A stretch of DNA of 56,571 nucleotides from positions 1 to 56,571 of the IMG/VR virus record IMGVR_UViG_3300018877_000056; one strand, given 5' to 3'. The stretch comes from a virus. Its lineage: Duplodnaviria; Caudoviricetes. Position numbers and translations under genes: made by a program. The notes below the pieces were generated by a model that did no database searches, was not told where the DNA came from, and worked only from the letters and a program-made list of their open reading frames with translations. Shown here piece after piece: positions 18,926 through 40,705 of the stretch (positions are counted from its first letter, which is position 1; every line of letters starts with the position of its first letter).

Positions 18926-19180
18926 TCATCGCCGCTTCAATCCATCTCGCTTAGGCATAATCTTCGTGACTTTGTAGACCTCGCCATTCTTATCGTATGT
19001 GGTCCATTCTCCAACCTGCTCGCCGTTCTCGAAGTAGCCAGAGCGCAGCTTGGTCCCATCGATCCTGAACCACTCCCAATAGCCTGTTGCAACGCCGTCA
19101 ATCGTCTGCCCCTTGGCCCAGAGGCTACCATCCTTGTGCCTCTGGATATGCTCTTTGATGCGAGTGTCTTCGGTTGTCAT
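18926..19180 (-). CDS. MORN-variant repeat protein
   Basis: GYWEWFRIDG...GEWTTYDKNG repeats. Confidence 0.7.
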   Translation of the reverse strand: MTTEDTRIKEHIQRHKDGSLWAKGQTIDGVATGYWEWFRIDGTKLRSGYFENGEQVGEWTTYDKNGEVYKVTKIMPKRDGLKRR

Positions 19181-19227
19181 GGCGGACCCTTCTGCAAAGT
19201 CCGCTCATCTTGCCAGAGCACGCCTGA

Positions 19228-19554
19228 ATGCCCAAACCCCTAGACCACAGAGCCCGCAACAGGGAATACGACCAGCGCAGAGGTTCGGCTCGGGAGCGGG
19301 GCTACAACTCACGCTGGGAGAAAGCCCGCAAGACCTACCTGATGCGCAATCCGCTCTGCGTCATGTGCAAGCGGGAAGGGCGAGTGACCCCGGCCACGGT
19401 GGTTGACCACGTCATCGCGCATAAGGGCGACACAGCGTTGTTCTGGGATACAGATAACTGGCAGGCCTTGTGCAAGCCCCACCACGATAGGGACAAACAG
19501 CGAGAGGAGCGAGGACGCTTCCAGGCTGTAGGAGAAGATGGGTGGCCTCTCTAA
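19228..19554 (+). CDS. Packaging-associated HNH endonuclease (HK97 gp74-like)
   Basis: RGYNSRWEKAR, PLCVMC, VVDHVIAHKGD, NWQALCKPHH; upstream of cos/terS. Confidence 0.9.
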   Translation: MPKPLDHRARNREYDQRRGSARERGYNSRWEKARKTYLMRNPLCVMCKREGRVTPATVVDHVIAHKGDTALFWDTDNWQALCKPHHDRDKQREERGRFQAVGEDGWPL

Positions 19555-19778
19555 TCTGCGAATGTGACGTTCCCCTGCCCAGCCGCAGCGATCCTGATGA
19601 TGTCATCAGTTGGGCGCAATGCAAGATTTCTGAAGACTAGTTTCGCCCCACTCCGCACGGACGCAGCAGCTATCCGCACCAGGTCTGCGGTGGGTCTCAC
19701 AGCCGCGTCTATGGTGAAGCCGCCCCCAGATGAGGCAATCCTCACCAACTCATCAGTCGTGCGCAGTTCGAACATCAA
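19551..19778 (-). CDS. Small repeat protein (moron)
   Basis: Three R(P/T)T.D(L/I).RIA repeats. Confidence 0.6.
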   Translation of the reverse strand: MMFELRTTDELVRIASSGGGFTIDAAVRPTADLVRIAAASVRSGAKLVFRNLALRPTDDIIRIAAAGQGNVTFAD

Positions 19779-19831
19779 AGCCCCCCATATGCGCGGTCAA
19801 GCATCATAGAGCGGGCGCGCTTGGTCAAGCC

Positions 19832-19920
19832 GGGGGGAGGTCAAAAGTCCAGAGCCTTCCCACCATGGACCGGCGCCCTCAGTCAAATGCGAAATGCCGC
19901 AAGTTTTCAGAAAAAGTTCC
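19832..19920 (+). other. Putative helper cos packaging site
   Basis: G-run GGGGGGAGGTCAAAAG...GGACCGGCGCCCTCAGTCAAATGCGAAATGCCGCAAGTTT between HNH and terS; copied in the satellite. Confidence 0.75.
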
Positions 19921-19921
19921 A

Positions 19922-20410
19922 ATGGGTAAGCGAGGGCCAAAGCCGAAGCTGGCGAGCATCCGTAAAATCGAGGGCAACCCTTCAAAGCGGCCGATTGTCG
20001 ATCTCGGGATCGAGGCCACCGGGGAGGTCTTCGCCCCCGAGCATCTGCATGATGACGCGCAGGCCTGCATTGAGATGATCCGGCGCTCGATGCCGCCGAA
20101 GACCTACGCGGCCGTAGACACATTCGCCCTCTCAGCTTTCGCCACGGCATGGGCCTGGCACAAGAGGGCCACTCACGAGATGAACGCCCCTGATTTCGAG
20201 CCTGTCGTAGACGGGAGCAAGGGGCAGAAACAACCAAACCCATGGTTTCGCATACTGAAGGCCATGTCCGAGGAAATGAGATCGTGGGGCGACCGCCTCG
20301 GGCTGGATCCAAAGGCAAGGGCCGCTCTGCAACTTCCCGAAAGCAAGCCAAGGAGCAAGTTCGACGGCCTGATCGGGCAGCCCGAGTCATTGCCTTCATC
20401 GAGGCATTGA
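19922..20410 (+). CDS. terS: Terminase small subunit (P27 family)
   Basis: MGKRGPKPK...GNPSKR, NPW, LGLDPKAR. Confidence 0.88.
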   Translation: MGKRGPKPKLASIRKIEGNPSKRPIVDLGIEATGEVFAPEHLHDDAQACIEMIRRSMPPKTYAAVDTFALSAFATAWAWHKRATHEMNAPDFEPVVDGSKGQKQPNPWFRILKAMSEEMRSWGDRLGLDPKARAALQLPESKPRSKFDGLIGQPESLPSSRH

Positions 20411-21930
20411 CGGTTCCGAGCGGCGAGGGGGCAGGCGGCCCGTTCGTCCTCCGGGAATGGCAGAAACAGTTCATCCGGGACATCTACGAGCCGCACGCTC
20501 TCACCAAGGGGCAGTATCGGCGCCAGGTTAGACGGGCCATCCTCTCGATTGCCCGTAAGAACGGCAAGACGGCTCTGATTGCGGCTCTCGTGCTGGTCCA
20601 TCTGGTCGGGCCGGAAGCCATCCAGAACGGGGAGATCTACTCCGCGGCGAACGACCGGGAGCAGGCAGGACAGGTCTACAAGGTCGCCTCGCAGATCGTG
20701 AAGGCAGACCCGGAGCTTTCAACCATGCTCCGCTGCGTTGACTCAACGAAAACGATTGCCTGCTATAGCAATGGGTCATTCTACAAAGCCATTTCAGCAG
20801 AGGCGGGCACGAAACATGGCCTCAACCCGAGTTTCGTCATCTTTGACGAGCTGGCTCAAGCGAAAGATCGCGAACTTTACGACGTTCTTGATACTTCGAT
20901 GGGTGCTCGTGCGGAGCCGCTCTTTGTAACCATCTCGACGCAGAGCAACGACCCCGAGCACATCCTGTCGAAGCTCATTGACGACGGGCTGGGGGCGAAA
21001 GACCCGACTATCGTCTGCCATCTCTACGCTGTTCCTGAGGAGCAGGAGGACATCTTCGACCCGAAGTGCTGGAAGCTGGCGAACCCGGCTCTAGGCGACT
21101 TCCGCGACTTCGATGACCTGAAGGCTATTGCCGACAAGGCACGGCGAATGCCAGCCGAGGAGCCGAAGTTCCGCAACCTCTACCTCAACCAGCGCGTGGC
21201 GCCGGTCGCATCCCTCATCTCCCGAGCCGAATGGATGGCCTGCAAGGGCGAGGTTGAATTCGAAGATGGCGAGGAAGTCTATCTCGGCTTGGACCTGTCC
21301 TCGATCAACGATCTGACGGCCCTTGTGATGGTCAGCGCGAGCGACCCGAGCCGAGTACAACCCTTTCTCTGGAAGCCGAAAGACTTCCTCAAGGAGCATT
21401 CAAACCGGGACTTTGGCCGAGGCAACCACCGCTTTGTCGAGTGGCACAAGCAGGGGTACCTTCTGGCGACCCCAGGCCGCTCGATCGACAAGGAAGTGAT
21501 CGCCCGCCACATCGCAGACCTTTGCGGCCGCTACCGCGTCCTCGGCATGGCCTATGACCGCTGGCGGATTGACGACTTGATCAAGGAATTCGACCGCATC
21601 GACTTCGCCTCTCATAAAGATGGCGAGAAGGGCGATGGGTTGCGGATCATCCCCTGGGGCCAGGGCTTCAAGGACATGACGCCGGCCATTGACGCGATGG
21701 AACTGGCGGTGATCGACCGGAAGCTGGTCCACGACAACAACCCTGTCCTCAACTGGAACATGGCGAACGCCGTCGCGGTCACGGATCCGGCAGGCGGACG
21801 CAAGATCGACAAGAATAAGGCCCGGTTCCGCATTGACGGCGCGGTGGCGCTCACGATGGCGCTTGGGCTGAAGTCTCGTGACCGCAAGGACGAGCGAAAG
21901 CCCGACTACCAGATGTTCGTGCTGGGCTGA
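20284..21930 (+). CDS. terL: Terminase large subunit
   Basis: Walker A ARKNGKT, IFDE Walker B, GLDLS and RIDGAVA nuclease motifs; start uncertain (20242 or 20284). Confidence 0.95.
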   Translation: MGRPPRAGSKGKGRSATSRKQAKEQVRRPDRAARVIAFIEALTVPSGEGAGGPFVLREWQKQFIRDIYEPHALTKGQYRRQVRRAILSIARKNGKTALIAALVLVHLVGPEAIQNGEIYSAANDREQAGQVYKVASQIVKADPELSTMLRCVDSTKTIACYSNGSFYKAISAEAGTKHGLNPSFVIFDELAQAKDRELYDVLDTSMGARAEPLFVTISTQSNDPEHILSKLIDDGLGAKDPTIVCHLYAVPEEQEDIFDPKCWKLANPALGDFRDFDDLKAIADKARRMPAEEPKFRNLYLNQRVAPVASLISRAEWMACKGEVEFEDGEEVYLGLDLSSINDLTALVMVSASDPSRVQPFLWKPKDFLKEHSNRDFGRGNHRFVEWHKQGYLLATPGRSIDKEVIARHIADLCGRYRVLGMAYDRWRIDDLIKEFDRIDFASHKDGEKGDGLRIIPWGQGFKDMTPAIDAMELAVIDRKLVHDNNPVLNWNMANAVAVTDPAGGRKIDKNKARFRIDGAVALTMALGLKSRDRKDERKPDYQMFVLG

Positions 21931-21943
21931 GAAGGATCACAGA

Positions 21944-23071
21944 ATGAACCGGATGTATTCGGTCCTCCACGTTAAGGCTGTGGAGGAGGAGCAGCGCATT
22001 ATCCGCGGCGTGGCCACGACACCCAATCCCGACCGGGTCGGGGACATCGTGGAGCCCTTGGGCGTCCAGTTCAAGAACCCGATGCCACTGCTGCACCAGC
22101 ACGACCACAATCGTCCTGTCGGCACTGTCACCTTTGACAGACCCACCAAGGACGGCATCACCTTCAAGGCGCGCCTCCCGAAGATCGAGGAACCTGGCCC
22201 ACTGCGTGACCGCGTGGAAACGGCTTGGGGCGAGATCAAGGCCGGTCTGGTCCGTGCCGTCTCCATCGGCTTCCGCGCTCTCGAATACGCCTTCCTGGAT
22301 GAAGGCGGGATCCGCTTCACCAAAAGCGAGGTCCTTGAACTCTCTCTCGTCTCCGTGCCGGCCAATGCCGACGCGGTGATCTCCACCATCAAGTCGATCG
22401 ACGCCCCCTTGCTCGCCGCGACCGGCAAAGAGCCCAAGGCGGATGATCGGCCTGTCCGCCCGGGCGCTGCCGGGAAAACCGTCAAATCCGTCAACTTGCG
22501 CCCGAAGGAGGGCACGAACATGAAGACCATTGCAGAACAGATTGCGGCGCTTGAGGCCTCTCGTCAGGCCAAGTCCGCGCGCATGGCCGAGGTCATGCAG
22601 AAGTCCATCGATGAGGGCCGTTCGACCGATCCGGCCGAGCAGGAGGAGTTCGACACCCTCGAGGGCGAGGTGGTCGCCATCGACGGCGACCTGAAGCGGC
22701 TCCGGGCCCTGGAGAAGGCCCAGGCCGCCTCTGCCAAGCCGGTTTCCGGCCAGAAGTCCGACGAAGGCACGGCTGCCCGCTCCCGCATTCAGGTCCAGCC
22801 CGTCGAGAAACTCGACAAGGGCATCGGCTTCGCCCGCCTGGCCAAGGTCAAGGCGATCGCGAAGCTGGATGGCGAGAGCGTCCGCACCGTGGCGAAGGAA
22901 CTGTATGGCGAGAACTCGTCCATCTACGGCCTGTTCGTCAAGGCCCCGGTCCCGGCCGGCACCACGCAGGACGGCAACTGGGCGGCTCCCCTCGTCGGCG
23001 AAGGCACCGATGTGATCGCCGACTTCGTGGAGTTCCTGCGGCCAAGAACAGACATGCGCCTTGCGGCGTGA
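21944..23071 (+). CDS. Prohead protease-major capsid fusion, 5' part (interrupted by satellite at 23033-23043)
   Basis: HK97 protease motifs LLHQHDH, AVSIGF, ELSLVSVPAN; coiled coil; capsid N-terminus ending DFVEFLRP. Confidence 0.92.
   Translation: MNRMYSVLHVKAVEEEQRIIRGVATTPNPDRVGDIVEPLGVQFKNPMPLLHQHDHNRPVGTVTFDRPTKDGITFKARLPKIEEPGPLRDRVETAWGEIKAGLVRAVSIGFRALEYAFLDEGGIRFTKSEVLELSLVSVPANADAVISTIKSIDAPLLAATGKEPKADDRPVRPGAAGKTVKSVNLRPKEGTNMKTIAEQIAALEASRQAKSARMAEVMQKSIDEGRSTDPAEQEEFDTLEGEVVAIDGDLKRLRALEKAQAASAKPVSGQKSDEGTAARSRIQVQPVEKLDKGIGFARLAKVKAIAKLDGESVRTVAKELYGENSSIYGLFVKAPVPAGTTQDGNWAAPLVGEGTDVIADFVEFLRPRTDMRLAA
23033..23043 (+). repeat. Satellite left att core TTCCTGCGGCC
   Basis: Identical to 33528-33538. 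Confidence 0.9.
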
Positions 23072-23096
23072 AATAAATCTAGAACATCAAAGACTT

Positions 23097-23119
23097 AGCC
23101 GCTCCCGAGCGGCTTTTTT
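23097..23119 (+). terminator. Rho-independent terminator just inside the satellite left end
   Basis: AGCCGCT-CCCG-AGCGGCT-TTTTT. Confidence 0.8.
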
Positions 23120-23153
23120 CATGTCTGCCGCTCGTTACAACGAGCACCAACAG

Positions 23154-23217
23154 AATCAATGACTTAACAAGACGGCCCAACGCAATCCGGCACGTCCACG
23201 CGACAACGACGCAACAA
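23154..23217 (+). promoter_or_regulatory. IHF site and integrase arm-type repeats of the left att arm
   Basis: AATCAATGACTTA fits WATCAANNNNTTR; ACGCGACAA-CG-ACGCAACAA echoes 33473-33492. Confidence 0.6.
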
Positions 23218-23238
23218 CAAACTGAGAAAGCATGCGAC

Positions 23239-23460
23239 ATGGAGAGATACATGGAGACCCCTCTTAACAGCACCGATCTGCTGCATGGGATGGAGGCCAT
23301 CGCGGCCTTCCTCGGCATCAAGAAAAGGCAGGCACAGCACTGGGCTGACACGACCGACATGCCGACATTCAAGATCGGCCGGACCGTGTGCGCTCGCCGG
23401 TCGAGCCTCAAGGAATGGCTTGCCAAGCGTGAACGCGGGGAGGCAGCCAATGACCGATGA
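23239..23460 (+). CDS. Satellite excisionase/AlpA-like HTH protein
   Basis: DLLHGMEAIAAFLG...MPTFKIGRTVCARRSSLKEWL. Confidence 0.8.
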   Translation: MERYMETPLNSTDLLHGMEAIAAFLGIKKRQAQHWADTTDMPTFKIGRTVCARRSSLKEWLAKRERGEAANDR

Positions 23461-23701
23461 CATCCTTGTCGCCACCATTCGCAAGAATTCCCGCGAGGAG
23501 ATCCGGGTCAGCCTGGGGGAGTATCAGGGCCATACCGTCGCGCACGCCCGTGTCTGGTTCAAGGCTGCCGATGGGACGATGCGTCCCTCTAGGTCGGGTC
23601 TCGCCTTCCGGGTGGACCTCCTGCCTGAGATTGCCCGCGCTCTGAGCGAGGCGAACGACCACGCTGAAAGTCTCGGCCTTGTCGCTCCCGCTCCCCGGTA
23701 A
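23450..23701 (+). CDS. PC4/p15-like ssDNA-binding protein
   Basis: RKNSREEIRVSLGEYQG...RVWF...PSRSGLAF. Confidence 0.75.
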   Translation: MTDDILVATIRKNSREEIRVSLGEYQGHTVAHARVWFKAADGTMRPSRSGLAFRVDLLPEIARALSEANDHAESLGLVAPAPR

Positions 23702-23724
23702 GCCAGCGGCACCGGAGGCGCGGA

Positions 23725-24243
23725 ATGAGCGCAAAGAAACGACGCAACAGCATCGGGCAACAATTCATCGCCCATCGCCGCGATATGAGAGAGGCCCCGG
23801 CCTGGAGGCACCTGCCGGACAATGCCCGGCGCATCCTCGACCGGCTGGAGCTCGAACACATGAGGCATGGCAGCGCTGAGAATGGCCGGCTGCCCTGCAC
23901 CTATGCCGACTTCGAAAAGGCAGGCATCCGGCGCAAGTCGATTGCCCTGGCCATCCGGCAGTGTGTGGGTTTGGGCTTCCTTGAAGTCACAAGACAGGGT
24001 CGCCGATCCGTGGCCGAGTTCAGAACGCCCTCTCTCTACAGGCTTACTTATGTGCACGGGACCGGCCGCAGCCAGGCCCCGACCGACGAGTGGCAGAGGA
24101 TCAGCACGGATGAGCATGCGCTTGCTGTGCTGGAGGCTCTAAAGGCTGTACCCTCCCGAGATCTAGAAAGTAGGGGCAATAGCGCCCCTAGGACTGTAGG
24201 GGCGAAAACGACCCCGGCACATGGTCTCCATAAGGGGCGATAG
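23725..24243 (+). CDS. Satellite winged-helix replication initiator (putative)
   Basis: AWRHLPDNARRIL, NGRL, LGFLEVTRQG, PSLYRLTY; iterons at its 3' end. Confidence 0.6.
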   Translation: MSAKKRRNSIGQQFIAHRRDMREAPAWRHLPDNARRILDRLELEHMRHGSAENGRLPCTYADFEKAGIRRKSIALAIRQCVGLGFLEVTRQGRRSVAEFRTPSLYRLTYVHGTGRSQAPTDEWQRISTDEHALAVLEALKAVPSRDLESRGNSAPRTVGAKTTPAHGLHKGR

Positions 24244-24272
24244 CGCCCCCGGATAAGGGGCGAAAACGCCCC
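24172..24272. repeat. Four palindromic iterons AGGGGC(G/A)AWASG(A)CCCC (putative satellite origin)
   Basis: Copies start at 24172, 24198, 24233, 24256; followed by AT-rich TTTTTAATTT. Confidence 0.75.
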
Positions 24273-24300
24273 CGGCTTTTTAATTTCAGCAGGTATCGAG

Positions 24301-24582
24301 ATGACACAGCAACGAGGCTCACGCCGCGAGGGCATCGCGCATGCCAAGCCGACGAGGCAATACGCATGGCAGATGCGAAACCCTGAGAAGCGCCGAGCCC
24401 ATCTTGCGGTTCAGCAGGCGTTGAGACGGGGCCAACTCGTGCGCCAACCATGCGCTGTTTGCGGGACCACTCAGAACGTGGATGCCCATCACGAAGATTA
24501 TCGAGCGGCGCTTGAGGTGAAATGGTTGTGCCGACGCCATCACAAGCAGAGGCACCGACAGATGAGGTGCGAGGGTGGGTGA
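24301..24582 (+). CDS. Satellite HNH-like Zn-binding protein
   Basis: CAVCG...DAHHEDY...WLCRRHH; immediately before the cos-like array. Confidence 0.7.
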   Translation: MTQQRGSRREGIAHAKPTRQYAWQMRNPEKRRAHLAVQQALRRGQLVRQPCAVCGTTQNVDAHHEDYRAALEVKWLCRRHHKQRHRQMRCEGG

Positions 24583-24850
24583 GGGGCGGTGTCTCTCTGC
24601 TCCCACTCCTGAGGTCCCGGACCGGCGCCCTCAGTCAAACGCGAAATGCCGCAAGTTTCCATAGGGGGGAGCCTCCAGGCTCAAAGACCCTTAGGCCGGA
24701 ACCGGTGATCGGCCCAAACTTCTCGTTTTTGCAGATTGATGTACTGCGACGTGAATTCTGCAACGAGGGGGGCACGGTCGAAATCTCGGCCGCCCAATCC
24801 CGGACCGGCGGTCCAAGCTTTCCTTTCCAAAACCTGTAGAAAAAAGATTT
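24583..24850 (+). repeat. Array of three cos-like units
   Basis: G-run followed 37-38 nt later by ACCGG, three times; unit 1 (24619-24658) is 39/40 identical to 19867-19906. Confidence 0.75.
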
Positions 24851-24854
24851 CAGG

Positions 24855-25220
24855 ATGGATGAAACGAACACCCTCCTGCGAGCCTTGATTGCTGAGGTGA
24901 AGGGGCTCCGAGCCGATCTGGCACGGCAGACAGGGGCAGAAGACCCAGCCTCAACCCTCGGGGATCTGGTGGAGGCTATCGCCTTCACCGTAGGGGATCG
25001 CGTGTTTACTGCTCCAGAACTCGCAAAGTTTGCAGAGGCAGCACCTCCCGAAAAGCTGCAGATCGCACTCCATGCAGCGGGCGGCACGAACCCTCGCAAA
25101 GTCGGGAAACTATTGCGCCGCATGGAAAAGCAGGAGTGCGGCGGCTGGCGTGTAGTTCAAATCGGCAGCGACCGCGACGGGCTGCTCTGGAAAGTACAGC
25201 CTGCAAGTTTGGCCCGCTGA
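24855..25220 (+). CDS. Satellite hypothetical protein
   Basis: 121-aa ORF, same strand as satellite operon. Confidence 0.55.
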   Translation: MDETNTLLRALIAEVKGLRADLARQTGAEDPASTLGDLVEAIAFTVGDRVFTAPELAKFAEAAPPEKLQIALHAAGGTNPRKVGKLLRRMEKQECGGWRVVQIGSDRDGLLWKVQPASLAR

Positions 25221-25300
25221 AACTCGCAAACTCGCACAGTCGATTGAGACGGCGAAAGTACACCCTCAATATACCCTCAGAAATCCACGACCAAAGGAAC

Positions 25301-26368
25301 ATGACCTTGGACCGTCTCGCCAGTCTTACCAGCCAATACGAGTCCCATTCGAAGGCGATGGCCTTCATTCAGTTCGCCATTACCAAGGCGATAGCACGAG
25401 ACCAGAGTGTAGACCCGCTGGAATTGTTTCAGGCGCGGTATCCGCATTCCAAGCATCTCGCCGCGATCCAGAAGGCCGCTGTCTCAGCCGGATCGACGGA
25501 CAACTGGGGCGCTCCTCTTGTCCCCCTGCCGGGCTATGCCTCAGAGTTCTTGGAGCTGGTAAGGCCTGCGAGTGTCGTAGGCCGGATGCGCGGTTTCCGC
25601 CGCGTCCCATTCCGGGTGAAGTTCACCAGGCAGACCTCCGGAGCGACGGCGGGCTGGGTTGGCGAGTTCAAGCCCATCCCGGTCGGCAAGCTCGATATGA
25701 GCACGGAGACTTTCGAGCATTCGAAGGTTGCTGGCATCATCGTCATTTCCAAGGAATTGGCCCGCTCCGCCGATCCGGCTGCCGAGCCCCTGATCCAGCG
25801 GGATATCGTGGCGGCCGTCGCCAAGTTCACGGACGAGCAATTCCTTGACCCTGCGGTGGCAGAGACGGGCGTACACCCGGCCTCCGTCACCCACGGTGCA
25901 ACGGAGGTGGTATCCAGCGGCAACGGCGCCGATGCAATTGCCGCCGATCTTAAGGCACTTGTGGCTGCTGTTGTCGGATCAGGTGCGCTGCTCACCGCAC
26001 CGTATTTCGTCATGAAGCCCTCGACGGCTCTTCACCTTGCGACCCTTGAGGGGACGAACGGTAAGGTTTTCCCGAACGTCAATGTCATGGGCGGTGACAT
26101 CTGGGGCATTCCGGTCCTCGTCTCTGGTAATGCGGGCGATCAGATCACGCTAGTTGACGCAGCCGAGCTGATGCTTGCCGACGGCGATGTTCAGTTGGAC
26201 ACGGCCGAGGAAGCAGCCCTCCAAATGGACGATGCGCCAGCCGATGGCGCGGTTCAGTTGGTCAGTCTGTTCCAGACCAACAGCATTGCCATCCGGGCCA
26301 TCCGCACAATCCGGTGGCGCATGCGCAACCCCGGCGCCGTCGCCTACCTCTCTGGCGTGACCTACTGA
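25301..26368 (+). CDS. Satellite HK97-fold major capsid protein
   Basis: Homologous to helper capsid (VPF, WVGE.KP.P, KVA.I.V, SLFQTNS.A.R); AAAGGA RBS before 25301. Confidence 0.92.
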   Translation: MTLDRLASLTSQYESHSKAMAFIQFAITKAIARDQSVDPLELFQARYPHSKHLAAIQKAAVSAGSTDNWGAPLVPLPGYASEFLELVRPASVVGRMRGFRRVPFRVKFTRQTSGATAGWVGEFKPIPVGKLDMSTETFEHSKVAGIIVISKELARSADPAAEPLIQRDIVAAVAKFTDEQFLDPAVAETGVHPASVTHGATEVVSSGNGADAIAADLKALVAAVVGSGALLTAPYFVMKPSTALHLATLEGTNGKVFPNVNVMGGDIWGIPVLVSGNAGDQITLVDAAELMLADGDVQLDTAEEAALQMDDAPADGAVQLVSLFQTNSIAIRAIRTIRWRMRNPGAVAYLSGVTY

Positions 26369-26378
26369 GGGCCCCGCC

Positions 26379-26591
26379 ATGGATGACGAGGCCTGGAACA
26401 AGAAGCTCGTTGAAGCCGCCGATGGCGCGATGGACGGTGGCGGCAAGAGCCTGGGCGAACGCTTCGGCGCGATGCTTGCCGCATGCGTCAGAACCGTTCG
26501 GGACGAGATGCGGGAGAAGCACCGCAAGACAGACGAGCGCCTCACCGCCATCGAGGAGCATCTGACAGCCATACGAGAGGGCAGGGAATGA
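26379..26591 (+). CDS. Small coiled-coil protein
   Basis: GAGG RBS; follows capsid gene. Confidence 0.55.
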   Translation: MDDEAWNKKLVEAADGAMDGGGKSLGERFGAMLAACVRTVRDEMREKHRKTDERLTAIEEHLTAIREGRE

Positions 26592-26815
26592 CCACGTTCA
26601 AGATCAAGTCCTTTGCTGACCTCGAGGCCTGCTTCGATGAGATCGCAGAAGGGAAGCTGCAGGACACGGCACGACTCCTCTCCCGCAAGGGCGCGACTGA
26701 TGAGGAGATCGAGGCCGAGCTAGCCCATCAGCGAGCGGCGATGGCAGCATCCAGGGCTCAGTTCATGGAACAGGCCAAGGGCTTTATCCAGCGCGGTGGA
26801 GAGAGCCTCCAGTGA
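26588..26815 (+). CDS. Hypothetical protein
   Basis: ATGA overlap; MTTFKIKSF... Confidence 0.5.
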   Translation: MTTFKIKSFADLEACFDEIAEGKLQDTARLLSRKGATDEEIEAELAHQRAAMAASRAQFMEQAKGFIQRGGESLQ

Positions 26816-26879
26816 GATTGCTGTGCCCTCCCTTCGCAGCAAGCGGTCGGCTCCTGAAGCGCCAGGGCCGACCGCACCC

Positions 26880-26970
26880 GGGGGGGTATTTGCCAGCTTT
26901 GGAAAGAACGGATCGTGGACCGGCGCCCTCAATCAAACGCGCGATGCCGCAAATTTCAGTAAAAAGTTCC
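26880..26970 (+). repeat. Fourth cos-like unit (helper-type core)
   Basis: G7...GGACCGGCGCCCTCAATCAAACGCGCGATGCCGCAAATTTCAGTAAAAAGTTCC, similar to 19867-19920. Confidence 0.75.
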
Positions 26971-26980
26971 GATCAACCCC

Positions 26981-27229
26981 ATGGATGAAACCCAAACTCG
27001 CCAATGTGGCGCAAGAACCCGCTCAGGAGAGCCGTGCAGGCGATCTCCGGCCCCCGGCAAGCGCAGATGCCGGCTCCATGGTGGCGCTCCTGGCAGCGGG
27101 GCTCCTACAGGCGAGCGCAACGGTGCATGGAAGGGCGGACGATACAGCAGGGCGATCACGCCCGAACAGAGACACCTGGCCTGGAAGGAATATTGGGCCG
27201 AGAAGAGGGCTAAGAGACATGGCAACTGA
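26981..27229 (+). CDS. HGGxSTG-domain protein (TerS-like position)
   Basis: CGARTRSGEPC...RCRLHGG..GSGAP.G.RN..WKGGRYS. Confidence 0.8.
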   Translation: MDETQTRQCGARTRSGEPCRRSPAPGKRRCRLHGGAPGSGAPTGERNGAWKGGRYSRAITPEQRHLAWKEYWAEKRAKRHGN

Positions 27230-27452
27230 AGTGATCGAGGCAGACCCCCACGACGTGGTGGCACAATATGCCCTTGAACGGCTCATGGAGATGGTGAGCG
27301 ACACGCCTATCCCGTCCCGTGCTTTGGCAATCGCCATGATTGCCAACGGTGGCGGCGCTATTGCCGCCCTCGATGGTCGTGAGGCGGCTGCGCAACTCCT
27401 TCGGGACGCTGCAGACCGGATCGAGAACCCCGAACTAGCCGGGAGAGCATGA
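27219..27452 (+). CDS. Hypothetical protein
   Basis: Overlapping start MATEVIEADP. Confidence 0.5.
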   Translation: MATEVIEADPHDVVAQYALERLMEMVSDTPIPSRALAIAMIANGGGAIAALDGREAAAQLLRDAADRIENPELAGRA

Positions 27453-27826
27453 CGATGAGCAGGAAACTCCATTACGTGATGTCAACATTCGGTGGCGAGC
27501 CAGCAATGTTCTGCCTCACCCGCCGCAGGCTCGAAATCTTCGAAGTAGGCCTTGAGGCCGGAAGCGCATTCGAGTTCCTCCGTAGGCTCCTGAACGGCAC
27601 CTGGGCAACGAGGGATCTCGTCAGCCTCCTTCAGGACGCTTACCGCGAACACGACGGGAACGTGAACCTCAAGGCGCATTCCCACGTGCGAGCCGTGATC
27701 GAGAAGAACGGTCCCGGGCACTATGTCGGCTTGGCCGCCAAAATCATCGAAGCCGCTCTCTTCGGAATACCAGAGAAGGATGCAGTCTTTGATGAGGCCA
27801 AGCAGCTCACAGGAGAGGCAGGTTGA
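27449..27826 (+). CDS. Satellite tail assembly chaperone-like protein
   Basis: FLRRLLNGTWATRDL resembles helper 39694 LLHRLMDGSWMVDDA. Confidence 0.6.
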   Translation: MTMSRKLHYVMSTFGGEPAMFCLTRRRLEIFEVGLEAGSAFEFLRRLLNGTWATRDLVSLLQDAYREHDGNVNLKAHSHVRAVIEKNGPGHYVGLAAKIIEAALFGIPEKDAVFDEAKQLTGEAG

Positions 27827-28269
27827 GCCAGGGCCTGAAGCGCTGGGAGCAGAGGCTAAAGAACATACCGAAGACGGTACGGGCGCGAGTGCGTGAAGCC
27901 ATTCACCAGGGAGCGGCTGAAATCGTTTCGGCTCAGAAGCGCTTGGCGCCAGTCAGGACCGGCAAACTGCGAGACAGTATCACGGCCACCATTGGCGGGC
28001 AGGCTCCAAAATACTCCCAGTTCGGCCGCATGGGCGGCAAGGGTGACGCCGATCTCACAGCAGTCATCACGGTCGGCAACTCCGAGGTTCGATATGCGCA
28101 CCTCGTGGAGTTCGGTTCCGCTCCGCATATCGCAGGCGGTAGGTTCAAGGGGGCGGACCATCCCGGCACGACCGCACAGCCCTTTTTCTATCCCGGCTAT
28201 CGCATGGTGCGGCGACGGGTGAAGAGCCGCATTACCCGCGCCGTCAACAAGGGCATCAAGGAGGCCTGA
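27823..28269 (+). CDS. Satellite HK97 gp10-like neck/tail protein
   Basis: QKRLAPVRTGKLRDSI, YAHLVEFG, HPGTTAQPFFYPG; paralogue of 38291-38797. Confidence 0.88.
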   Translation: MSQGLKRWEQRLKNIPKTVRARVREAIHQGAAEIVSAQKRLAPVRTGKLRDSITATIGGQAPKYSQFGRMGGKGDADLTAVITVGNSEVRYAHLVEFGSAPHIAGGRFKGADHPGTTAQPFFYPGYRMVRRRVKSRITRAVNKGIKEA

Positions 28270-28272
28270 GCC

Positions 28273-30300
28273 ATGGCAGTTGAACGCGATGCAATGATCG
28301 TCTCGGTTGAGGCGCGCATCAACAATATCGAGCGTCAAATGGCGAAGGCCTCAGCCACATCGCGGAAGCATTTCACGCGGATCGAGTCCGATGCAAAGAC
28401 CATGGCGAGCCGGGTAAATGCCACTATGGGCAAAGTCGGGGAGGGGCTGAAAACAGCCTTCGTAGGGTTCGCCGGTGGTCTTGTTGGGGGGCTTGCTGCC
28501 GGAGGTGTTCTAGGAGTCCTCGGAAGCGTCCAGGGAGCCATGTCTGAATTGGCGAACGTGGCGGCTGAGGCCAAGCGGGCGGGTCTAGGCGGAGAAGCCT
28601 TCCAGGAATTGAGTTATGCCGCCATGCAGAGCCGGGTGAGCATTGACGCTCTGACGGACGGCCTCAAGGAGATGCAGCTCCGGGCGGATGAATTCATCGT
28701 CACGGGCAAGGGCAGCGGCGAGGAAGCCTTTAAGCGCCTCGGCTACTCGGCAACCGAACTGAATGAGAAGCTGAAGGACCCGCCAAAGCTGTTCGAAGAG
28801 ATCATCGACAAGCTAGGGCAACTCGATAAGTCGTCACAGATCCGCATTGCCGATGAGATCTTCGGCGGTGAGGGTGGCGAGCAGTTTGTGCGCTTTCTGG
28901 ACAAGGGGGCGGGTGCAATCGCCCGGGCGCGCCAGGAGGCAAGGGACACCGGCAATGTCCTTAGTGAGGATATGCTGAAGAAGGCCGTCGAGATCGATCA
29001 GCAGTTCGAGACCATAGCCCGCACCATCGGAACCAATGTCAAGGGCGCAATTGTCAGCGTGGTGTCCGCTCTAAAGGAGTTCGTGGGCGAGGCGAGCATG
29101 CTCAACAGCAGGAGCATTGAGGCAGTCTCCGACAGGATCAGCAAGATCAAGACAGAAATGGAAAGCCTGCAGAAGATCGAGGCTGATGCACGGCGAATGT
29201 TCCCGAACGCTCTCGAAAGCGCCTTCGCAGGCAATGCAGACAAACTGAAAGCCTACCGCGACGAGCTGGGCAAGCTCGAGGAACACCTGGGGCGACTCAA
29301 GACGAGCGCCCCGACCTCTCCGGGAGAGGCCCCGCCGACAACGCCGGCAGGCGGCAAGGGAGATCTGAGCCAAATCGACGTTGCCGGTAGCAAAAAGAAG
29401 GCACTGGAGGGCTATGCCGCGCTCGAACAAGCGGCCCTAGCTCGCATCAATACTCTGCGGGTGGAGCAGCAGGCTCTCGGCCTCACGACGGGAGAGGCTG
29501 AAAAGCTCCGGTTTGAGCAACAACTCCTGGCTGAAGCAACGCGAGACGGGACGATACTTACCCAGACACAAAAGGATCGTATCTCGGAGCTCGCGGGGCA
29601 GTACGGAGCACTTACGGCAGCAATTGAGCAAACTGAGAAGGCACAGCAGGAAGCTAATCAGGCTGCGGAATATTTCGGGGATGTGGCCGTTGATGCTATA
29701 TCCGATCTGGCCTTAGAGGGGCGCAATCTCGATGACGTGCTGCAGAACATCGCGAAGAGCCTCGCCCAGGCAGCAATTCAAGCCGCCATCCTCGGCCAAG
29801 GGCCTCTTGCCGGTCTCCTCGGGACGAGTGGCGTGAATGGTGCGCCTGGGGGCATCATTGGCGCATTGCTAAAATCATTCTCTCCGGTCAAAGCGGCTAC
29901 AGGCGGTTACATTAGAGGGAGAGGCACAGGAACGAGCGACAGCATTCCGGCCCGTCTCAGCAATGGCGAATATGTCGTGAATGCCAGAGCGACAGCTGCC
30001 AATCGAAAGCTGCTGGACGCAATCAACTATGGGCGTGTGCCGCGCTTCGCTGAGGGGGGATTTGTGGGCGTGCCGACCGTGCCGACACCTATTGCGCGCG
30101 GAAGTGGCGGCGGGATGAAAACAGAGGTCCACATCCACGAAGCCCAGGGAGTGAAGACCACCGTTAAAGAGACGCGTGGACCTAGTGGTGTGCGGTTCGA
30201 TGTGTATGCCCGTCAACTCGTTGAGGGCATGGTGGCAGACGGTAGCCTAGATCGGGTTGCAAAAGGCCGCTGGGGGGTGAATCCCATGCGGGGACGTTAG
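28273..30300 (+). CDS. Satellite tape measure protein
   Basis: 675 aa helical; ATGGYIRG.GT.TSDSIPARLSNGEYV; C-terminus matches helper TMP. Confidence 0.88.
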   Translation: MAVERDAMIVSVEARINNIERQMAKASATSRKHFTRIESDAKTMASRVNATMGKVGEGLKTAFVGFAGGLVGGLAAGGVLGVLGSVQGAMSELANVAAEAKRAGLGGEAFQELSYAAMQSRVSIDALTDGLKEMQLRADEFIVTGKGSGEEAFKRLGYSATELNEKLKDPPKLFEEIIDKLGQLDKSSQIRIADEIFGGEGGEQFVRFLDKGAGAIARARQEARDTGNVLSEDMLKKAVEIDQQFETIARTIGTNVKGAIVSVVSALKEFVGEASMLNSRSIEAVSDRISKIKTEMESLQKIEADARRMFPNALESAFAGNADKLKAYRDELGKLEEHLGRLKTSAPTSPGEAPPTTPAGGKGDLSQIDVAGSKKKALEGYAALEQAALARINTLRVEQQALGLTTGEAEKLRFEQQLLAEATRDGTILTQTQKDRISELAGQYGALTAAIEQTEKAQQEANQAAEYFGDVAVDAISDLALEGRNLDDVLQNIAKSLAQAAIQAAILGQGPLAGLLGTSGVNGAPGGIIGALLKSFSPVKAATGGYIRGRGTGTSDSIPARLSNGEYVVNARATAANRKLLDAINYGRVPRFAEGGFVGVPTVPTPIARGSGGGMKTEVHIHEAQGVKTTVKETRGPSGVRFDVYARQLVEGMVADGSLDRVAKGRWGVNPMRGR

Positions 30301-30304
30301 GACC

Positions 30305-30619
30305 TTACCGTGTTGTCTCTGGCGTCCCGGCGAGATCATCCAGAAACGAGCTATAGGGGAGACGTGCCAGGATAGTGCCCCTTGATGCCACCATCGCCGC
30401 AGTTGTGCCGCGGCAAAGCAGAGTCACATTGCCGGTGGTTCGCTTGCAGAAGGCGTCAGGGCTGTCGATGAAGTTCAAGCCAGACGGCCCCATAACAATG
30501 GCGGTTACGCCGTCCGGGATTGCACCGATCGGTTTGATGACGAACACCCGTAGCCCCGCAAGGTAGGCAATGAAAACTAGGGCGGCCAACCCGAACGAAA
30601 CTAGGAATAAAGCTCTCAT
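30305..30619 (-). CDS. Membrane-anchored cargo protein
   Basis: N-terminal hydrophobic helix; FVIKPIGAIPDG; two Cys. Confidence 0.55.
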   Translation of the reverse strand: MRALFLVSFGLAALVFIAYLAGLRVFVIKPIGAIPDGVTAIVMGPSGLNFIDSPDAFCKRTTGNVTLLCRGTTAAMVASRGTILARLPYSSFLDDLAGTPETTR

Positions 30620-30668
30620 CAACTCACGATGGCACAGGCTGGGCGCAGTTCGCAAGGCTAGTAAATTC

Positions 30669-31262
30669 TTAAGCGGCCCACCAAGATAGCAAAGCGAGAG
30701 CGCCCCTGACGCCCCAGTAAACCAGCGTAAACACCCCAACCAGCATACTCAATCCGATAATGATATTGATCGAGCGCGGGAAGATGCGATTGGGGGCAAC
30801 ACGAATATGCTTGCCCTGTGCTCCATCGAAACGAACGTTTACCAAGTGGGGCATATCATTGTTCAGATGGAGCAAATAGAGATTGAAGCTTTCTTTTGGG
30901 TTTAACCGTTCGACCTCAATAATTAATCGCTCATCAGGATTGTCTCTGATGACAAAGGGGAGTGGAGGAGAGAGCTCCAAATGGTAGGGCCGGAAGTTGA
31001 ATATAATCTCTACATTATTGGCTGTTTGCCTACCTGCGTTGGTAAAAAAGAGCGTTTGTGTTCTAACGGGAGAGTATTTTCCTTCTCCGTCTTTGGGTAG
31101 GAGGTATGCCGACTGTAATTCTGAGTAATGTAGTTTGGGTTTGGCCGCAAAGAACCCAAGGATCAGCGATCCTAAGCCCGTCAAAAGTGTCGTAATGATA
31201 CCAGCTGTTATTTCTTTATTATTATTTGCGAACTCTAATACTGCGGCAAACATTGCTTCCAC
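30669..31262 (-). CDS. Two-TM cargo protein, AT-rich
   Basis: Terminal hydrophobic helices, NAGRQTANNV beta-domain. Confidence 0.65.
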   Translation of the reverse strand: MEAMFAAVLEFANNNKEITAGIITTLLTGLGSLILGFFAAKPKLHYSELQSAYLLPKDGEGKYSPVRTQTLFFTNAGRQTANNVEIIFNFRPYHLELSPPLPFVIRDNPDERLIIEVERLNPKESFNLYLLHLNNDMPHLVNVRFDGAQGKHIRVAPNRIFPRSINIIIGLSMLVGVFTLVYWGVRGALALLSWWAA

Positions 31263-31526
31263 GAAGTCCAGCTAAGCTACTTTAAGCAATGAGTGGACTT
31301 GATCGTAGCTGAAGAGTCAATGCTGTTGGGACGTGTCAGCGCGCGCGAAAACCCCTTCCGCCTTGCCGGGCGGTGGGTTCGCGTGTCATATTTGTAATTG
31401 GAGCGTAGCAACTCCCGAAGCGGGCCCTTGCCGGGGCTGGCGCTTCAGTCACAGAGCGGTGGCGATCCCTTGCCGGGGATAGGCCATCGAAAGCAAACGC
31501 GCTTCACCTAGTGAAGCGTGACCGGC

Positions 31527-31626
31527 TCACTATGCCGGGAGTCCATCCGTTATACAAGACCCTTTCGAGGGGAAGACGGTTGGGCGTGCTCTCTGTGGCG
31601 CGTTGCTACCCTCCCGGTGCCAGTGA
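31527..31626 (+). ncRNA. c4/CI-type antisense immunity RNA (putative)
   Basis: Closing stem TCACTATGCCGGGAG/CTCCCGGTGCCAGTGA; carries CTCTGTG and GTTGCTAC complementary to flanking CACAGAG and GTAGCAA targets on both sides. Confidence 0.65.
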
Positions 31627-31707
31627 CGACCGCTGGCAACTGGAGACAAACCCGTAGCAAGGCGAGTCTCCCCGGCCGTAGCAAGCCGGTTCTCCACAGA
31701 GTAACCC

Positions 31708-32154
31708 ATGACTTCACAATTCTACGCCCGCAGTGGGCCAATAGCGTCTCCGGCTATCGATCCGGAGCGCACGCGTCTCCGCGCCTTGAGAGCTGAGATT
31801 GAGCGAGAGTTAGAGCGGATGATTGATCTGCTCGACGCCATCGACGGCGACCCGGACTTTGAACCTTCCTTTGGCTCGGTTGCCCCGGGACACGTTGACG
31901 AGGCTGAACCCGACGCAGACCTTGAACCTTCCCTCGGCTGGACGAGCACCTATGCCCATGGCTCCGATCAGGACCTTGAGGAGGAGCATGACGGTCGGGA
32001 GCCCGATGAGGATTTCGAGGGCAACACCGATGACAACGGCATAGGCGACCGTGGCGGGCTTGATGAGCAGTACGGCATTGATGCGACTGTGACCCGCTTC
32101 CCGCTCTACGGAACGATTGACGGCACCGCTCACATCATCCCTGAAACGTACTGA
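31708..32154 (+). CDS. Acidic D-x-D-x-EPS repeat protein
   Basis: IDLLDAIDGDPDFEPS, DADLEPSLG, DQDLEEEHDGREPD. Confidence 0.7.
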   Translation: MTSQFYARSGPIASPAIDPERTRLRALRAEIERELERMIDLLDAIDGDPDFEPSFGSVAPGHVDEAEPDADLEPSLGWTSTYAHGSDQDLEEEHDGREPDEDFEGNTDDNGIGDRGGLDEQYGIDATVTRFPLYGTIDGTAHIIPETY

Positions 32155-32161
32155 TCCAAAC

Positions 32162-32194
32162 GGCCCGGCTGCATTCCGTGGCCGGGCCTCTTTT
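32162..32194 (+). terminator. Rho-independent terminator before satellite integrase
   Basis: GGCCCGGC...GCCGGGCC-TCTTTT. Confidence 0.6.
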
Positions 32195-32211
32195 CATGAA
32201 AGGAGAGCAAC

Positions 32212-33519
32212 GTGGCAAGCGTGAACAAAAGAGAGTGGACCTATAAGGGCGAGACAAAAACCGCCTGGGTGGTTCGGTATACGGACCAAGGCGGCAAGCG
32301 TCGAATGAAGACTTTCGAGAAGAAGAAGGAGGCGGATGCTTTCCGGGTTCAAGTAGAAAGCGAGATCACGCAGGGAGTGCATACCGCCTACAACGAGAGC
32401 GTGACCTTCGACAAGGCGGTCGATGAGTTTATAAAGGACTGCTATCGGCGGGAGAAGCTAGGGGACATAACGCTAAGTGGCGTGAAGGGCTACGAGTATC
32501 GGCTTGAACATTACACAGTCCCCAAGTTCGCTAAGCGTCGTGTCTCCACGATCACGGCGGCAGAAATCCAAACCTATGTAGAGGAACTGCGCGAGAAGCT
32601 GTCCCCCCATACCATCCATGGGATCTATGGCTCGCTGCATGTGCTGCTGACCTTTGCCGTGTCCAAGAAGTGGGTTCGCCGGAATGTGCTGCGAGACGAG
32701 CCCTGCAAGCTGCCGACCAAGCCGAAGCGCAAGTCGATCCCGACCAAGGACGACATAAGGGCGCTCCTAGAGGCTGCTTCTCGCCTCGACAAGGGAGAGA
32801 ACCTCCTGACGTTCGTAAACCGCTCTGTGGTCATTGCCTGCGGCGTCTTCTGCGGTTTCCGTCCAGGGGAGACCTTTGGCCTGCATTGGGAGGACATCGA
32901 CTGGGAAAGGGGAGTGATCCATGTTCGCCGTGCGCACTCGAAGGTGAACGGGCTGAAAACGCCCAAGACCGAGGCGGGCTTCCGTGACGTGCCGCTCACC
33001 GAGCCTGTGCGCCGTGCTCTCTATCAGGCCGCGCGCTATTGGATCATCAGGAGGATGGCGACGGAGACAGGCGGAAGACGAGGCTCTATGAACCCGAAGG
33101 CTATTTTCAGCCGCATCGCCCGCATGTGGGAAACAGAGGTGGTTCACGTCGATCCGACGCAACTTAAGGGCTTCGTGATCCTGACGAAGGTGGGCAAACC
33201 CATGTCGGCAACAGCCAGCGCGACGACGTTCTGGAAGCGCCTTATGGATGCGGCCGGACTGTACGATCACGAGGCCAAGAGAAACAAGTTCACGCCTCAC
33301 GCCCTGCGGCATGTGGCAGCCAGTCTGCTAATCGAAGCGGGGCTCGATGACATGAACCTAAAGCGCTTCATCGGGCATGCCTCGATCCAGACAACCAAGG
33401 ACATCTACGGTCATCTTTTCCCGACCGATCAGCGCATGGTTGCGACAACAGAGGCCGTTGCGGCGAGCCTAGACGCGACAAGAACGCGACAAATCGCTGT
33501 AAGGCATTCATTCAACTAA
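32212..33519 (+). CDS. int: Satellite tyrosine integrase
   Basis: GFRPGE, PKT, PHALRH, GHASIQTTKDIYGH; ends 8 nt before att core; GAAAGGAG RBS. Confidence 0.95.
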   Translation: MASVNKREWTYKGETKTAWVVRYTDQGGKRRMKTFEKKKEADAFRVQVESEITQGVHTAYNESVTFDKAVDEFIKDCYRREKLGDITLSGVKGYEYRLEHYTVPKFAKRRVSTITAAEIQTYVEELREKLSPHTIHGIYGSLHVLLTFAVSKKWVRRNVLRDEPCKLPTKPKRKSIPTKDDIRALLEAASRLDKGENLLTFVNRSVVIACGVFCGFRPGETFGLHWEDIDWERGVIHVRRAHSKVNGLKTPKTEAGFRDVPLTEPVRRALYQAARYWIIRRMATETGGRRGSMNPKAIFSRIARMWETEVVHVDPTQLKGFVILTKVGKPMSATASATTFWKRLMDAAGLYDHEAKRNKFTPHALRHVAASLLIEAGLDDMNLKRFIGHASIQTTKDIYGHLFPTDQRMVATTEAVAASLDATRTRQIAVRHSFN

Positions 33520-33527
33520 CAAAAATA

Positions 33528-33538
33528 TTCCTGCGGCC
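33528..33538 (+). repeat. Satellite right att core TTCCTGCGGCC
   Basis: Identical to 23033-23043. Confidence 0.9.
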
Positions 33539-40262: not shown

Positions 40263-40676
40263 TTAGCCCATTCGATCAATATCAGCCTTGAAATCATCAA
40301 GACTTTTCCACGACCGGCGTTCCCCCAAAACAATGGCTTTAACCCCACTCCCGAGGTGGTGGGCGTACGGTATTCCTCGATAGTTGCCTGTAGGGCGGAA
40401 AAGCTCTGCAGCGGTGACCTTGGGGGCTTCTACCTCAGGGGGCTGTGTGGAGGCTGGTTGGGGCGGGGCCGTATTCCGGGAAATGGTTTCTAACAGTTCA
40501 AGGGCATAGGCAAAGCCGAGGAGTGGCGCCCCCGCGAGGAGCATTCCAACGCCCCAAGCCGCGACCGTGAAGACCAGCGGCCCCGTTAGGATGCTGAAAC
40601 CCAAAGCACCGAAACCGGCCAATACGCTGATAAAGCCGAAAAAGCGCAACAGACCTATTGCCATACTGCCCCCCAT
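40263..40676 (-). CDS. Membrane protein moron
   Basis: Two N-terminal TM helices; antisense between chaperone and TMP. Confidence 0.6.
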   Translation of the reverse strand: MGGSMAIGLLRFFGFISVLAGFGALGFSILTGPLVFTVAAWGVGMLLAGAPLLGFAYALELLETISRNTAPPQPASTQPPEVEAPKVTAAELFRPTGNYRGIPYAHHLGSGVKAIVLGERRSWKSLDDFKADIDRMG

Positions 40677-40705
40677 TCTGGGGCATATTACCCCGCGAGA
40701 CCCTC

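Follow-up and report, generated by a model that had tools for sequence, protein, structure and literature searches.

We analysed a 56,571-nt stretch of viral DNA (hereafter the window; IMG/VR record IMGVR_UViG_3300018877_000056), which is the minus strand of contig C35 in a 4.2-Mb assembly (G000), and which carries a prophage, the helper, with a smaller element, the satellite, inserted in its capsid gene. Assignment of genes to Pfam and PHROG families placed an HK97-like prophage in the window from ~12 kb onward on the + strand, the strand of all genes and sites of the window given below. The gene for the protease-capsid fusion protein of this helper is split: its 5′ part (21878..23071; Peptidase_S78 and Phage_capsid) stops at position 23071, and the capsid portion restarts beyond the satellite at 33591 (3′ part, 33591-34409). 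An 11-bp direct repeat, TTCCTGCGGCC, was found as the att core at both edges (left, 23033..23043; right, 33528-33538), and a tyrosine integrase gene (32212..33519; Phage_integrase, E 6e-23) lies just inside the right copy. The split capsid gene, the flanking TTCCTGCGGCC repeats and the adjoining integrase together identify the ~10.5-kb insert (23033-33538) as an integrative element inside the helper capsid gene. For comparison, the protease-capsid homologue of provirus G401 is an uninterrupted 709-aa open frame, and the IMG/VR phage L053 carries a 656-aa open reading frame (ORF) after terL at the equivalent position, placed there by location alone. This integrase-bearing insert bears four sites resembling the cohesive-end packaging site (cos) of the helper, so the helper and satellite labels of the first-pass annotation stand, and the origin and use of these sites are the subject of this report.

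The packaging region of the helper follows the order HNH endonuclease gene (19228..19554; Pfam HNH, E 4e-6), small ORF, 112-nt spacer and terS, the gene of the small terminase subunit (19922-20410; Pfam Terminase_4), with terL, the gene of the large subunit, at 20242-21930 (Pfam). The cos-type site of the helper (19832..19921), designated type H, consists of a G-run (19832-19837), an ACCGG motif (19869), a 40-nt core (19867-19906) and an A-tract, which leads to the terS ATG at 19922; the ACCGG precedes terS by 53 nt. This layout is that of the mapped cos of Escherichia phage HK97. In the HK97 record, the HNH gene stops 319 nt before the right genome end and terS begins 49 nt into the left end, while a run of nine G residues is found 30 nt upstream of an ACCG that begins 12 nt before the right end. 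The HK97 TerS footprint extends from +15 to +29 relative to the cut, with emphasis on a G and an A-tract (PMC11331095), and HK97 cos is described as leaving 3′ overhangs (10 or 12 nt, a length that differs between two papers) after HNH-stimulated cleavage and as stalling the packaging motor in vitro in a TerS-dependent manner (PMC9410871). The phage sites described here share with HK97 cos the position between the HNH gene and terS, the G-run ~30 nt before ACCG, a cut (predicted here) ~50-60 nt before terS and a downstream A/T-tract, to which TerS binds in HK97; the TerL proteins of the helper and HK97 are 42% identical, with 92% of the helper protein covered. Our sites differ from HK97 cos in reading ACCGG rather than ACCGCC, in having unrelated cores, in the presence of several sites on one small element, and in that the DNA ends are predicted here.

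All G-run and ACCGG coordinates given by the first-pass annotation for the helper and for four units on the satellite held on rechecking, with the units starting at 24583/24621 (unit 1), 24664/24701 (unit 2), 24767/24804 (unit 3) and 26880/26919 (unit 4), all in the orientation of the helper site (19832/19869). Unit 1 (24583..24658; ACCGG 24621, core 24619-24658) is of type H, and its core differs from the 40-nt helper core (19867) at one position, exactly as had been claimed, a match found in 0 of 100 shuffles. Unit 4 (26880..26980), also of type H, has a G-run at 26880-26886, ACCGG at 26919, a core at 26917-26956 with five mismatches in 40 nt, an A-tract at 26959-26966 and, further on, an ATG at 26981, and is 83% identical to the helper site over 58 nt. 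Unit 2, designated type 2 (24664..24746; G-run 24664-24669, GGAACCGG, ACCGG 24701, core with CAAACTTCTCGTTTTTGCAGATTGATGT), and unit 3, designated type 3 (24767..24854; G-run 24767-24772, GGTCGA box, ACCGG 24804, A-tract 24838-24846, orf121 ATG 24855), retain the G-run, the spacing and the GG(A)ACCGG motif, and their continuations differ from that of the helper, confirming that the cores are different. An inverted repeat, TTGCAGATT ... GAATTCTGCAA (24729..24763), has its left arm within the unit 2 core. The four units had been described as one tandem array; this is true of units 1-3 (24583-24854), and unit 4 stands 2.1 kb further, behind the satellite capsid gene. On the satellite, an HNH gene stands before unit 1 alone, and no unit has a recognised terS behind it. 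A crude scan of 24100-27100 detected no σ70-like promoter, and the terminator-like hairpins that it returned (three) were as many as in shuffled sequences.

The strict pattern of at least five G residues, 24-36 nt and GGA(A)CCGG occurred 15 times in the whole 4.2-Mb assembly compared to ~8.4 matches expected from the frequencies of its parts. Four of the 15 matches fell within 7.1 kb of C35 on one strand and two fell on a 10.4-kb contig, C82; a looser pattern gave 65 matches in the remaining 4.13 Mb. The clustering of the G-run/GGACCGG motif in the satellite is not due to chance.

The array turned out to be a family trait. Genome G291, of the same genus, contains a related satellite at the identical site of a related protease-capsid gene. 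Contig C82 (L025) has a 141-nt terminal overlap consistent with a circle of ~10.3 kb and codes for ParA, a ribbon-helix-helix protein, an AAA_25 Rep with GGAACG iterons, a GNAT protein and a LuxR-type regulator, and for no integrase; judged by these genes, it is apparently a plasmid-form relative of the satellite, in effect a natural cosmid. Only the 24719-27210 segment is common to C82 and the window satellite, at ~70% DNA identity, and within it C82 preserves the order of type 2 site, type 3 site, orf121, capsid gene and type-H-like site (units A, B and C) seen in the window. Unit 3 is 79-84% identical between the two elements compared to ~67% on average for neighbouring coding DNA, and the distal core of unit 4 is 78-88% identical compared to 57% for its spacer. 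A type-H-like unit was also found at the unit 4 position in L089, a remnant from another species of the genus. The earlier description of unit 4 as a diverged copy of the helper site fits its 83% identity, but not as mere decay, as its recurrence in C82 and L089 indicates a predicted helper-type site that is positionally conserved in the satellite family. Unit 1 and the satellite HNH-like gene before it appear to be a later addition, because both are missing from the G291 and C82 relatives.

To place these sites among phage packaging regions, we used 401 genomes of the bacterial family, 44 of which contained a Terminase_4 terS; 30 of these loci were fetched. The motif was present in 13 of the 30 loci, with 13 matches in 97,089 bp compared to 1.5 expected from the background of the looser pattern in the window's own genome (65 per 4.13 Mb), and in 8 of the 13 motif-bearing loci the ACCGG lay 52-81 nt before the first long ORF, whose N terminus was TerS-like. 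A GGTCGAAAGTC-like box following the G-run was common to many phage spacers, and unit 3 as well as C82 units A and B read GGTCGA at this place. An nhmmer profile of 10 phage sites returned six matches in the own genome, two of which fell on the helper site (E 11) and on unit 3 (E 41). Since the layout equals that of the mapped HK97 cos and recurs in terS leaders of the family, we conclude that a G-run, ~30 nt, GGACCGG and a variable part would constitute the signature of an HK97-type cos region. By analogy with HK97, GGACCGG may contain the nick region, a position that we infer, and the following stretch may be the TerS-specific part.

The first-pass annotation had proposed that the cores derive from distinct helper phages and that units 2 and 3 should be compared with HNH-terS spacers of other prophages. 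This comparison assigned unit 2 to the prophages of G291 and G129 and unit 3 to L096, so that types H, 2 and 3 each match the site of a different phage, in support of that proposal. The type H core stands upstream of terS in the IMG/VR phages L054 and L053, and a diverged version occupies the same place in prophages of G156 and G163. The G291 helper has the order HNH gene, stop codon, G-run, ACCGG, a core with CAAAACTTCTCGCTTTTGCAGATTAATGT, and terS; the G291 satellite repeats this core at 46 of 50 positions, and recognisable versions are present in unit 2 and C82 unit A. The G129 prophage also carries a type 2 core, and its TerS is 73% identical to that of G291. The type 3 match is to L096, an IMG/VR provirus in record G401 (54,048 nt; completeness given by the tool as 98%), which was found with a degenerate pattern built on unit 3 and C82 unit B. 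L096 contains a run of eight G residues, a spacer, GGACCGG and a core identical to unit 3 at 45 of 55 positions; its site lies 53 nt upstream of terS, and the core stops 10 nt short of a 137-aa ORF that occupies the place of terS and is followed by terL. The sites of the helper, the G291 helper, G129 and L096 all sit between an HNH gene and terS.

The matches were evaluated by local scores against 18 phage sites, with 400 genomic stretches led by GGACCGG as controls (1001 in the L096 test). None of the 400 controls reached the score of unit 1 (32), unit 4 (35, against L054), unit 2 (25, against the HNH-terS spacer of the G291 helper), G291 satellite unit b (39), C82 units A (18) and C (16), or L089 (17). 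Against L096, unit 3 scored 33 and C82 unit B scored 24 compared to a control maximum of 11 (n=1001). A blastn search of the 401 family genomes with the array returned, beyond the own genome and G291, only short matches (E 7e-4 to 0.01). In the loci scanned, these had no motif or stood away from terS, and we treated them as chance.

The phages carrying the three core types have TerS proteins with hardly any recognisable similarity to one another. No alignment was obtained between the TerS proteins of the helper and L096; those of L096 and G291 compared at E 0.16, and those of the helper and G291 were similar (34%) over 58 N-terminal residues only. TerS of neither G291 nor L096 matched a Pfam family, and the TerL proteins of the helper and G291 are 25% identical. 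Across 13 phage sites, core similarity correlated with TerS similarity with a Spearman coefficient of 0.32 over 78 non-independent pairs; pairs with TerS at least 65% identical had core scores of 12-33 compared to a mean of 7.3 and a maximum of 17 for pairs below 100 bits. In contrast to the terminases, the insertion target is common to these phages. The helpers of the window and of G291 have protease-capsid proteins that are 75% identical, that of G401 is 69% identical, uninterrupted, and preserves 10 of the 11 att-core bases at homologous codons, and the integrases of the window and G291 satellites are 90% identical. L054 has the terS and cos of the helper but a different head module (32%). 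The helper-type phages (L054/G402, L096/G401, L026) are mosaic, with one head module combined with three unrelated terminase modules in the window, G291 and G401. By these comparisons, head and terminase modules evidently reassort among helper-type phages, so that a satellite targeting the head gene would meet different terminases.

We propose that the units are probably alternative HK97-type cos sites, one type for each TerS family, carried by a satellite without a terminase of its own. The sequences show the motif and that it is homologous to phage sites, the matching of types to phages and the conserved order of types; from these we infer that the sites are cut, that the nick falls in the common motif, that TerS binds next to it, and that several helpers make use of them. 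In the proposed mechanism, the common G-run and GGACCGG would serve the conserved TerL/HNH nuclease, which would nick at GGACCGG, and the variable stretch beyond it would be bound by TerS and confer specificity. Type H (units 1 and 4) matches the resident helper, type 2 the terminase module of the helper in G291 and G129, and type 3 the provirus L096/G401. Because the capsid-gene target is common to phages with unrelated terminases, the satellite can be expected to land in helpers with differing TerS; the resident TerS would then bind its own unit, and TerL/HNH would cut there. As the predicted overhangs differ between types, a round of packaging would need one and the same type of unit at its beginning and its close. 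More tentatively, and with rather less assurance than for the sites themselves, the whole satellite lineage, in its helper-embedded and its ParA/Rep plasmid forms, may keep an ordered heterologous set of cos sites, each keyed to a different TerS family, and could act as a multi-key cosmid for any of several mosaic phages that have a capsid module in common and differ in having unrelated terminases.

Several observations weigh against this proposal. The two type-H units are only 2.3 kb apart in one orientation, which is awkward for unit-length packaging. Skipping of cos sites that lie too close together has been proposed for the satellite EcCICFT073 as an explanation for its packaging into full-sized capsids (PMC6092414), and such skipping would soften this problem. 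Unit 1 has a weak G-run (GGGGCGG) and no A-tract, and its similarity to the helper is lost after 38-40 nt; unit 2 reads GGAACCGG at the ACCGG motif, and the first ~14 nt past its ACCGG are unlike both cognate phages. Unit 3 adjoins a start codon both in the phage (terS) and in the satellites (orf121), and may therefore be conserved as part of a leader or ribosome-binding region. The motif, as it was written, was absent from 17 of the 30 Terminase_4 loci, and the profile of 10 phage sites, which was weak, listed neither units 1, 2 and 4 nor the C82 units. Three of the four G291 satellite units had no clear phage partner: 295 of 400 (unit a) and 64 of 400 (unit d) controls were as good, and unit c was borderline (1/400). 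Exact 22-mers of units 2 and 3 had no match in viral contigs, nor did degenerate unit 3 patterns in genome and metagenome contigs. Finally, the assembly possibly comes from a run labelled as metagenome, so that C82 and the helper may stem from different cells.

Some of these observations suit an explanation in which the satellite uses no unit but the one that fits its present helper. Units 2 and 3 would then be leftovers of helper switches, gained by recombination with phage cos-terS leaders, and would survive because they now overlap the orf121-capsid operon at its promoter, operator, 5′ leader or origin. We regard this combination of a record of past helpers and a regulatory leader as unlikely, though not negligible. 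The end of unit 3 at the orf121 start, where its phage counterpart ends at the terS start, would fit such relics, as would the cut-proximal bases of unit 2 that are unlike those of the cognate phages, the several G291 units without a phage partner, and the location of the array beside the Rep iterons in C82. The inverted repeat at unit 2, 88% identical to G291 over 50 nt, also fits, since its right arm was found only in the three satellites, and cos2 of EcCICFT073 is reported to be dispensable for transfer (PMC6092414). However, units 2 and 3, like C82 units A and B, have preserved the G-run, the spacing and GGACCGG, none of which a leader should require; the types have stayed in order at an overall identity of ~70%, and the crude scan of the region found no σ70-like promoter.

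It is much less probable that the units form an interference device, which would bind helper TerS or stall the terminase and thereby lower helper packaging rather than serve packaging of the satellite. Stalling of the packaging motor by HK97 TerS at cos in vitro (PMC9410871), the common targeting of helper packaging by satellites (PMC5052747, PMC6739421) and the two type-H copies on one small element speak for such a device. Yet, units 2 and 3 are unlike the site of the resident helper and cannot titrate its TerS, and a satellite lacking a terminase needs a cos site of its own in any case.

Late promoters of P2 and P4 provide a precedent for activator-read elements common to a helper and its satellite. 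That the units are such late-gene control elements, read by a phage activator, and not packaging sites is about as improbable as the interference device: every unit does stand directly before the leading gene of an operon in its own orientation, with matching copies in helper and satellite, but the HK97 layout coincides with the mapped genome end and TerS footprint (PMC11331095), no promoter-like hexamers were found, and nothing in the window matched Rfam.

Returning to alternative cos sites as the preferred explanation, we compared the satellite with known systems. Satellites that copy the cos of their helper include P4 and SaPIbov5 (PMC5052747). Like the satellite described here, P4 and SaPIbov5/SaPIbov4 lack a terminase and combine a near-copy of helper cos with a capsid-protein homologue (PMC5052747, PMC10690885); they are described as having one cos type and similar helpers, whereas the three types found here match unrelated TerS. 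Two cos sites on one satellite are also on record, with cos1 and cos2 of EcCICFT073 functional and two putative sites in SaPIbov4 (PMC6092414, PMC6739421). EcCICFT073, a phage-inducible chromosomal island of E. coli, resembles our case in having more than one cos site, with common cosQ/cosN-like parts and differing cosB, the sites being functional there and predicted here (PMC6092414, PMC6739421). It differs in that its cosB, by the account given there, has no counterpart in any phage and is recognised by a hybrid of Rpp and TerS, and in that its two sites work with the same set of helpers; in our satellite, a real phage site corresponds to each of the variable parts. The first-pass annotation knew of no array of this kind. 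With the two-cos satellites in print this holds for heterologous arrays only: an array matched to different helpers was not found in the literature on multiple cos sites and satellite cos, a search that left the supplementary cos alignments of SaPIbov5 and EcCICFT073 outside.

The helper-embedded configuration has its closest counterpart in the helper-embedded phage-inducible chromosomal island (HE-PICI) 11capE, which is located in the lambda-like capsid gene E. That island is also integrase-bearing, co-oriented inside the helper capsid gene and equipped with its own capsid gene (PMC10111431), and it has cos-region sequence in common with its helper (PMC10111431). It is described as enterobacterial and lambdoid with one common cos region, as opposed to the HK97-like helpers of another bacterial family described here. 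In the window, the 11-bp repeat splits the protease-capsid gene with the satellite genes on the + strand, co-oriented with the helper capsid gene, and the same site is used in G291. In contrast to the order int, alpA, pri, ori and late genes of Gram-negative PICIs, the integrase of our satellite lies at its right end, and neither alpA nor pri was identified in it; the two were likened by insertion configuration. The nearest analogy for several sites of different specificity comes from conjugation, and is an analogy only: mobilizable plasmids with multiple origins of transfer (oriT), such as pEC156, can start transfer at more than one site and thereby draw on more helpers (PMC11389934). The review cited notes multiple oriTs and contains no mention of multiple cos sites.

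The satellite carries further genes besides the integrase. A PC4-like gene lies within 23033-33538, and the HNH-like endonuclease gene (24301..24582; phrog_2340, E 1e-21), whose stop codon adjoins unit 1, codes for a protein only 25% identical to the helper HNH. The genes orf121, major capsid, orf70 and orf75 (24855..26815) are conserved in C82 and G291; the capsid gene (25301-26368; Phage_capsid) is 42% identical to that of the helper. Behind unit 4, in the terS position, a small Cys-rich protein is encoded (26981..27229), putatively of the 'HGGxSTG' kind; it has weak PHROG matches including one terS family at E 9e-4, and this apart, a scan of 17 satellite ORFs detected no terminase family. 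Tail-related genes at 27449-30300 encode a tail-tube-like protein, a Neck1/tail-completion protein and a tape measure of 675 aa (phrog_10574, E 2e-119) that is close in size to the 686-aa helper tape measure; such genes are unusual cargo for a small satellite. The protein encoded by orf121 (24855-25220), a gene kept in all relatives just 3′ of the array, gave no meaningful match in a PDB sequence search; its Atlas model resembles primase/helicase proteins in their C-terminal part (TM by query, 0.64-0.66), which is a lead only. A distant orf121 homologue stands directly after a 616-aa ORF in the IMG/VR contig L087.

Between orf172 and the HNH-like gene (24169-24275), there are four 23-nt direct repeats, each forming a GGGGC...GCCCC hairpin, with a T-run after the last; an origin is one possible function, and a group of terminators is another. 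At the left end of the satellite, directly 3′ of the truncated capsid ORF, a GC-rich hairpin with a T-run (AGCCGCTCCCGAGCGGCTTTTTT; 23096-23122) looks like an intrinsic terminator, which would also block helper late transcription entering the satellite.

The helper continues beyond the satellite with the portal gene (34712-36085), connector genes and the gene for the tape measure (40658-42718). Its TerL found its best matches (44%) in four Ralstonia 'phage' records (ON170149, ON170171, ON170322 and ON170310) that are only 12.9-18.7 kb long, a size suggesting capsid- or terminase-bearing satellites rather than complete phages. A blastn search of deposited phages with the helper cos-terS stretch and the unit array returned nothing but a chance 73-nt match inside the HNH gene, and a tRNA scan of the window detected none.

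In the source run (X1), the region was assembled as three Logan contigs covering 19000-23062 (depth 17.7), 23033-33538 (10,506 nt; depth 21.4) and the part from 33509 onward (depth 16.2), with the breaks coinciding exactly with both att cores. A de Bruijn graph would break at these points if a second junction exists, an argument that presumes a particular k-mer size. The exact breaks and the higher depth of the satellite are weakly consistent with extra circular or tandem copies of it, or with its presence in another context. In a second run of the same study, a relative has an L096-type GGACCGG core at a contig end and a capsid gene that is bridged with no insert; at 85% likeness, such relatives were not used as evidence. 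Runs X2 and X3 contained relatives or scraps only, and their cover and depth figures were left unused.

These results bear on the breadth of a satellite's helper range and on the factors that set it. The cos satellites known to date either carry a copy of the site of one helper or redirect TerS by means of a protein. If the proposal made here is true, an array of sites for unrelated TerS would be a purely cis-acting way of widening the helper range, and it would explain how a satellite follows a capsid gene across phages with mosaic packaging modules. The array would then be the packaging counterpart of mobilizable plasmids with multiple oriTs. As a by-product, the HK97-type cos signature could help to predict the genome ends and TerS specificity of prophages.

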